Shown here one piece after another: positions 1 through 338 of a stretch of 338 bases of DNA (position 1 is the first letter of the stretch; each line of letters starts with the position of its first letter). Origin of the DNA: Escherichia coli (GTDB taxonomy: Bacteria > Pseudomonadota > Gammaproteobacteria > Enterobacterales > Enterobacteriaceae). The stretch lies in the NCBI RefSeq assembly GCF_003334355.1, contig NZ_QOWP01000113.1; one strand, 5' to 3'. The translations under genes were made by a program, and so were the position numbers. The notes beneath the pieces were generated by a model, which searched no databases, was not told the origin of the DNA, and saw nothing but the letters and a program-made list of their open reading frames with translations.

Positions 1-338
1 CTCAGCATGTGGCCGGATAACCGTATCGCCCGTGACGCGCACTATCTTTACCGGTATGACCGTCACGGCAGGCTGACGGAGAAAACCGACCTCATCCCGG
101 AAGGGGTTATCCGCACGGATGATGAGCGCACCCACCGGTACCATTACGACAGTCAGCACCGGCTGGTGCACTACACGCGGACACAATATGCAGAGCCGCT
201 GGTCGAAAGCCGCTATCTTTACGACCCGCTGGGCCGCAGGGTGGCAAAACGGGTGTGGCGACGTGAACGGGACCTGACGGGCTGGATGTCGCTGTCACGG
301 AAACCGCAAGTGACCTGGTACGGCTGGGACGGCGACCG
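1..338 (+). CDS. rhs: Internal fragment (5' and 3' partial) of an Rhs-family YD-repeat protein, conserved core region of a polymorphic toxin; about 112 codons in frame 1
   Basis: Seen in sequence: frame 1 on the + strand has no stop codon across all 338 nt, while + frame 2 stops at TGA 74-76 and + frame 3 at TAA 18-20. The translation contains three YD-repeat motifs: [14 protein letters not shown] (nt 43-84), [12 protein letters not shown] (nt 139-174) and [14 protein letters not shown] (nt 214-255). Established knowledge: the run ...[41 protein letters not shown]... matches my recollection of the conserved Rhs core of E. coli RhsA/B/C-type proteins, upstream of the PxxxxDPxGL core/tip boundary. 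By hand count the GC content is about 62% (209/338), consistent with the known GC-rich Rhs core. Which paralog (rhsA/B/C/D/E or another species' copy) cannot be decided from 338 nt, so the symbol is the generic family prefix only. Confidence 0.92.

Follow-up and report, generated by a model that had tools for sequence, protein, structure and literature searches.

The window analysed here, a stretch of 338 nt from Escherichia coli, almost certainly codes for part of an E. coli Rhs (rearrangement hot spot) polymorphic toxin of the RhsA/B/C subfamily and lies in the conserved core of its gene. Three complete YD repeats are encoded, together with a truncated one, and each of them would form one β-hairpin of the Rhs shell. 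The coding frame, the match to the family, the conservation of the motifs and the genomic contexts of the sequence are all matters of observation. The finding is correct but ordinary and belongs to established biology: published work already covers the YD repeats of Rhs proteins, the hairpins and shell that they build, and the arrangement of rhs loci in E. coli into core, tip and orphan (PMC2935791, PMC3150448, PMC10684867). It matters little beyond correct annotation, where it provides a clean negative: a conserved protein repeat fully explains the internal repetitiveness of the window. The wider interest is that the window belongs to a multi-copy core, the homology behind rhs-mediated rearrangements and toxin-tip displacement.

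Reading frame, YD motifs and family membership

Frame +1 is free of stops across positions 1-338, and the remaining five frames have one to eight stops and no YD dipeptide. The features located in the window are as follows.

1-338, + strand: internal part of the Rhs core coding sequence, frame +1 (RhsC residues 921-1032 of 1397; RHS_core model positions 935-1046 of 1261)
7-9, + strand: ATG annotated as the start of the K-12 pseudogene ybfO (b0703); window nt 1 is position 715 of locus L007 and 734,214 of NC_000913.3, and ybfO runs from 734,220 (L007 721)
42-51, + strand: 10-nt repeat, copy 1, CTATCTTTAC, encoding Y15-L16-Y17, two codons before YD
43-90, + strand: YD hairpin 1, predicted strand Y15-Y19, turn D20-R-H-G-R24, strand L25-D30; Pfam match at aa 16-30 (i-E 0.016)
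130-186, + strand: YD hairpin 2, predicted strand T44-Y49, turn D50-S-Q-H-R54, strand L55-Q62; Pfam match at aa 44-61
193-270, + strand: YD hairpin 3, predicted strand E65-Y74, turn D75-P-L-G-R79, strand R80-R90
213-222, + strand: 10-nt repeat, copy 2, CTATCTTTAC, encoding Y72-L73-Y74, where Y74 is the Y of YD
307-338, + strand: unit 4, degenerate (T-W-Y-G-W-D-G-D, then R-L past the window), identified from model strands and conservation and cut by the window end

The YD dipeptides lie at codons 19-20 (nt 55-60), 49-50 (nt 145-150) and 74-75 (nt 220-225), in the contexts Y17-R-Y-D-R-H-G-R-L25, Y47-H-Y-D-S-Q-H-R-L55 and Y72-L-Y-D-P-L-G-R-R80. The three in-frame units in a Y-x-Y-D-x-x-(G/H)-R-(L/R) context described in an earlier note were thus recovered in frame +1 at every coordinate. 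The peptide motif is far beyond chance. When the 112-aa translation was shuffled 200,000 times with its composition preserved, 0.035% of the shuffles contained the pattern Y.YD..[GH]R[LR] and none contained it more than once, as against three occurrences in the window. This pattern was written after seeing the data, yet equals the published consensus. Three bare YD dipeptides are alone a weak signal, this count being reached in 5.9% of shuffles. Full-length RhsC contains 19 YD dipeptides against 5.2 expected from its composition.

The translation of the window matches the NCBIfam equivalog model RHS_core (NF041261) with an E value of 7e-73 and 246 bits over positions 935-1046, that is, 112 of 1261. 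The cut-off of this equivalog, 2000 bits, is set for a whole protein against the 1261-position core model. Both whole proteins containing the window lie above it (RhsC, 2683 bits; the protein of strain E2865, 2641 bits), and the K-12 orphan that carries the exact sequence lies below it, with 767 bits over positions 908-1261 only. Membership of the YD-repeat family is established by TIGR01643 (YD_repeat), for which the window reaches 27.6 bits against a curated cut-off of 15.8 (E 2.8e-6), the best stretch being aa 38-61 in unit 2. The profile search named in the earlier note as a check on its proposal therefore yields a YD-repeat hit, with the repeats in frame. The Pfam model PF05593 (RHS_repeat) gives three matches exactly on the motifs (aa 16-30, 44-61 and 70-82), but these are individually sub-threshold (i-E 0.016, 0.19 and 5). 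Since the window has no individually significant Pfam match, the family call rests on NCBIfam, on conservation and on structure prediction and comparison.

In RhsC, eleven significant RHS_repeat hits lie upstream of the window, at residues ~361-892, and the window is the weak tail of this array. The plug domain PF03527 (Pfam RHS) and TIGR03696 follow the window at ~1143-1247. TIGR03696 is located at residues 1170-1247 in RhsC and in the E2865 protein, and at 277-354 in the orphan. The features of Rhs polymorphic toxins (core-end domain, tip and small downstream gene) are thus present in the loci that contain the window, outside the window itself. Homology between rhsC and the orphan ends at the end of the core, and the small downstream genes ybfB and ybfC come next. 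The annotation of the 12 kb surrounding the rhsC locus includes neither a vgrG nor a PAAR gene.

The identities and codon differences between the window and the rhs genes of K-12 are as follows.

rhsC (residues 921-1032): 98.8% nucleotide identity; 4 synonymous and 0 non-synonymous codon differences
rhsA: 98.2%; 5 synonymous and 1 non-synonymous (A64E)
rhsB: 98.2%; 5 synonymous and 1 non-synonymous (A64E)
rhsD: 80.7%; 36 synonymous and 16 non-synonymous

The dominance of synonymous differences, both against rhsA, rhsB and rhsC and against rhsD, suggests that the window is under purifying selection.

These observations bear on two other possible sources of the repetitiveness: a non-coding element, whether structured RNA, REP-like repeat or regulatory array, and a gene on the opposite strand, where a 63-aa open reading frame exists (107-298, minus strand). 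Weak inverted repeats are present: perfect 8-nt arms at 30-37 and 61-68, and 22-nt arms, 77% complementary, at 1-22 and 105-126. However, a search of Rfam with both strands of the window returned no match at E<=1, and no tandem array is present apart from a 9-nt, 2.1-copy match of minimum score. Moreover, it is frame +1 that is open and matches a curated family, the differences between paralogues are mostly synonymous in that frame, and its G+C content of 74% at third codon positions accounts for long antisense reading frames. A non-coding or antisense origin therefore has a negligible probability, and the view of the earlier note that no non-coding repeat element need be invoked holds. The antisense reading frame was set aside as a by-product of the high third-position G+C of the sense strand, and both inverted repeats were judged to be chance occurrences in a GC-rich coding sequence. 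The arms of the perfect 8-nt repeat (CCGTGACG and CGTCACGG), separated by 23 nt, flank the first YD, probably by chance. Overall, the window has a G+C content of 62%, with the above-mentioned 74% at third codon positions. The E. coli average is about 51%, well below this value, and the high G+C is the known G+C-rich signature of the Rhs core.

Repeat units, their conservation and the predicted shell

The family was explored with the 354-aa core remnant, which found 86,661 relatives at E<=0.001 among 1.84 billion representative proteins. A trimmed alignment of 33 relatives of 40-98% identity together with the query (34 sequences) provides the following counts for the residues of each unit.

Unit 1 (of 34): Y17 33, Y19 27 (H in 6), D20 33, G23 34
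Unit 2 (of 34): Y47 29, Y49 32, D50 33, H53 28, R54 30, L55 34
Unit 3 (of 34): Y72 33, Y74 34, D75 34, G78 32, R79 34, R80 34
Unit 4, YGWDGDRL (of 34): W109 33, D110 28, D112 32

The columns of the three motifs are thus conserved in 27 to 34 of the 34 sequences, Y19 being the weakest, and all three aspartate columns in 33 or 34. Two units depart from the usual repeat at a single position: a histidine replaces the usual glycine in the turn of hairpin 2, and R80 replaces the usual leucine in hairpin 3. In the repeat of Pseudomonas aeruginosa Tse5, leucine is most often swapped for arginine (PMC10684867).

A fourth, degenerate unit exists at the 3' end of the window and had been missed in the earlier reading. 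The RhsC sequence beyond the window end goes on with DRLTT. The single match reported by Tandem Repeats Finder (9 nt, 2.1 copies, 315-333, minimum score) corresponds to the W-Y-G and W-D-G codons of this unit and does not represent an array.

The spacing of units 1 to 4 in the window is 30, 25 and 35 residues. These distances are uneven and exceed the canonical ~21 residues, which speaks against an explanation by YD repeats; the spacing in the canonical region of RhsC is 20-24 residues. The long distance of 30 residues between units 1 and 2 is due to a clade-specific insertion, relatives below about 50% identity having a gap of 7-10 residues at this point. Window positions 91-129 (codons 31-43), between the two units, make up this insertion, which is confined to the enterobacterial clade.

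An AlphaFold model of the 354-aa remnant was built from a shallow alignment of 24 sequences, as a fragment outside its shell context. Its mean pLDDT is 82.8, and its 10-residue blocks range from 74 to 94 in the four hairpins and from 68 to 74 in the first 13 codons of the window, ahead of hairpin 1. In the numbering of the model (window codon + 27), the predicted hairpins are as follows.

Hairpin 1: strand 42-46, turn D47-R51, strand 52-57
Hairpin 2: strand 71-76, turn D77-R81, strand 82-89 (pLDDT blocks 92-94)
Hairpin 3: strand 92-101, turn D102-R106, strand 107-117
Hairpin 4: strand 130-137, short turn, strand 141-145

The claim that the periodicity reflects the β-strand repeats of the Rhs shell is supported by this model, in which hairpins are predicted exactly at the four motifs, YD ending the first strand and D-x-x-G/H-R forming the turn. 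A Foldseek search of the PDB gave 42 matches at E <= 0.001, all of them Rhs, Tc-toxin or teneurin shells, the best being Tse5 (E 1.5e-20). The Rhs/YD-repeat shell fold is thus assigned by prediction (AlphaFold and Foldseek), in agreement with the description of Tse5. The hairpin geometry is likewise a predicted one, drawn from the model and from homology to solved shells, and comes from a shallow-alignment prediction rather than a solved E. coli Rhs structure. A five-helix insertion is also predicted at model residues 170-239 (6427-6636 of L001, the K-12 rhsC locus; RhsC ~1063-1132), with pLDDT blocks of 80-94. It would follow the last hairpins of the shell and precede the C-terminal plug, outside the window.

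The shell of Tse5 is composed of 40 hairpins with the consensus YDXXGRLV, in which DXXGR is the turn and the tyrosine faces the cavity (PMC10684867). By analogy with this literature, from which the roles of individual residues are taken, the aromatic-x-Tyr segment of each unit would end the first strand, Asp-x-x-(Gly/His)-Arg would form a tight turn and Leu or Arg would begin the return strand. About forty such hairpins would build a single antiparallel sheet spiralling into a hollow shell, which would enclose the variable C-terminal toxin until delivery. The units of the window are the last, degenerate and unevenly spaced ones of the array, located ~140 residues upstream of the C-terminal plug with its aspartyl autoprotease and PxxxxDPxGL boundary.

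The 10-nt direct repeat calls for a different interpretation. As the earlier note had reported, CTATCTTTAC is found at 42-51 and again at 213-222, both copies reading Y-L-Y in frame +1; its further claim that the repeat marks two of the units does not stand, the copies being out of register with the units, no more frequent than chance would allow and absent from rhsD. Such a repeat might be the trace of a recent unit duplication, or a site promoting in-frame slippage or deletion (171 nt, 57 codons) and hence variation in shell length. In keeping with this, the two copies match exactly and share a reading frame, their distance of 171 nt is divisible by three, and rhsA, rhsB, rhsC and the orphan all have both of them. 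However, one or more exact direct repeats of 10 nt appear in 5.4% of the shuffles when single nucleotides are permuted and in 10.3% when codons are. The copies are 57 codons apart and their YDs 55, which places them two codons out of register; the repeat that is in register with the units is 135-150 versus 210-225 (81% over 16 nt), and units aligned in register are identical at only 18-22 of 39 nt. Moreover, copy 1 covers Y15 and L16, which vary freely among the 34 homologues, and rhsD has lost both copies (CTATGTCTAC at the first site and CTACCTCTAC at the second) while keeping the protein motifs. A query with the junction that a 171-nt deletion would leave (GCGCACTATCTTTACGACCCGCTG) gave a normal two-piece match spanning 338 nt in each of the 12 matches listed; rare variants might rank lower. 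A role for the repeat in duplication or slippage is thus highly improbable, and its reading as a trace of unit duplication was rejected on register, shuffle statistics and loss in rhsD. The repeat arose because two Y-L-Y tripeptides happen to use identical codons, and this exact DNA repeat should not be taken for a separate element.

Genomic contexts: intact gene and orphan

The window is 100% identical to positions 734,214-734,551 of E. coli K-12 MG1655 (NC_000913.3). This match falls in ybfO (b0703), a 5'-truncated orphan rhs fragment located between ybfB and ybfC, downstream of the intact rhsC. The window has hits in 3882 of 5426 complete E. coli genomes, in a median of 4 and a maximum of 8 places per genome; nearly all of these places lie on the chromosome and bear an RHS protein annotation. 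There are two contexts for the exact sequence: the orphan fragment ybfO in K-12-like strains, and an intact rhs gene of 1399 aa in strain E2865, in which the identical 338 nt are followed, directly after the gene, by ybfC. It is probably commoner as an orphan, as judged from annotation names, with three strains checked: 17 of the 20 best genome rows bear the PGAP name given to the partial fragment in K-12 and in strain 503025, and the other three, differently named, include E2865 with its intact gene.

In the intact gene of E2865, the stretch would be a working part of the shell, and the ATG at window nt 7-9 encodes an internal methionine wherever the rhs gene is intact. In K-12, the exact copy lies in a truncated orphan of about 350 core residues that is unable to form a shell alone. 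The 338 nt alone fit both the intact gene and the orphan, and in an orphan the repeats would lack the structural role set out above, which weighs against reading the window as part of a working shell.

In the published model of Rhs tip displacement, an incoming tip brings a piece of core with it and the old tip is pushed downstream along with a core remnant (PMC2935791, PMC3150448). Orphan rhs-CT/rhsI modules of this kind (displaced tips) are present in K-12 and in strain 503025, which has the same arrangement as K-12. The orphan fragment of K-12 (5920-7440 of the rhsC locus, L001) is annotated without an N-terminus, shares 97.5% identity with rhsC along 1036 nt and has ybfC directly after it in the gene order. 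In the E2865 gene, the last ~1 kb of core and the tip are 99.9% identical to the K-12 orphan, and the upstream part is 97.6% identical to K-12 rhsC. Relative to E2865, K-12 has an extra 1871 nt ahead of the same tip, made up of ybfB, the rhsC tip and the 3' part of the core. The two loci are a textbook example of the displacement of a C-terminal tip. In K-12, the newcomers would be the rhsC tip with ybfB, and the ybfO tip with ybfC would be the displaced old tip; in the orphan context, the DNA of the window would be homology left by, and usable for, such a displacement.

Several further observations concern these loci. The 3' end of the E2865 core is 99.9% identical to the K-12 orphan and 97.6% identical to K-12 rhsC, as seen when 3241-7440 of the E2865 locus (L002) is set against 1370-7440 of L001. 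In strain 503025 (L006 870-5063), the rhsC that precedes the orphan, although of intact length, bears a pseudogene annotation with an internal stop. The K-12 rhsA, rhsB and rhsD loci have annotated pseudogenes just downstream of immunity-like genes: yibJ (L003 5222-5923), yrhC (L004 4888-5133) and ylbH/ybbD (L005 4950-6131), respectively. These are presumably further displaced rhs tips.

It is conceivable, if rather unlikely, that the exact copy in the window is the K-12-type remnant and that this remnant is not inert. Its ~1 kb of core might be kept nearly identical to rhsC as a recombination substrate for swapping the silent ybfO tip and ybfC onto rhsC, or a truncated intracellular toxin might be made from it, with translation beginning at the ATG at nt 7-9. 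In the latter case, a protein composed of truncated YD repeats and a toxin would act inside the cell, like the internally expressed Rhs toxins of Salmonella, which behave as toxin-antitoxin modules. This ATG is the annotated start of ybfO, and promoter-like hexamers lie upstream (5777-5816 of L001). However, RefSeq calls ybfO a pseudogene or partial gene, the promoter scan found 4 sites, a number not significantly above the 1.8 +/- 1.3 of shuffled sequences, and the internal starts of Salmonella lie near the toxin tip and not about 330 codons upstream. Translation of the K-12 orphan from this codon is therefore improbable. Both ideas of a non-inert remnant have a precedent in Salmonella and, if true, would extend known biology to E. 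coli without providing a new kind of system.

Relation to known Rhs and YD-repeat proteins

The K-12 RhsA, RhsB and RhsC cores and ybfO carry the same sequence with at most one amino-acid change (A64E), and only the context of the window is ambiguous, E2865 having the identical stretch in its intact gene. RhsD shares the same core region, and its motifs in units 2, 3 and 4 are identical. It differs in unit 1, which has Y-R-H-D in place of Y-R-Y-D (Y19H), and in keeping neither copy of the 10-mer.

Among solved structures, Tse5 of P. aeruginosa (PDB 8CP6) is a close counterpart. Window aa 3-88 align to residues 864-940 of 8cp6_B, inside the barrel (E 2.4e-7), and the YDxxGRL hairpin logic is common to both proteins (PMC10684867). 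Full-length RhsC matches Tse5 with an E value of 1e-125, and nine other solved Rhs shells were also matched. However, the 354-aa model aligns structurally to Tse5 with about 33% identity, the two proteins have different toxin tips, and the E. coli clade has an insertion of 7-10 residues between units 1 and 2.

More distantly, the BC components of Tc toxins (YenB/YenC2 and TcdB2-TccC3) and the eukaryotic teneurins share the same YD-repeat spiral shell fold (Foldseek E 1e-7 to 1e-9). Their identity is only 13-17%, and as insecticidal ABC toxins and cell-adhesion receptors, respectively, they represent other forms of delivery and a different biology.
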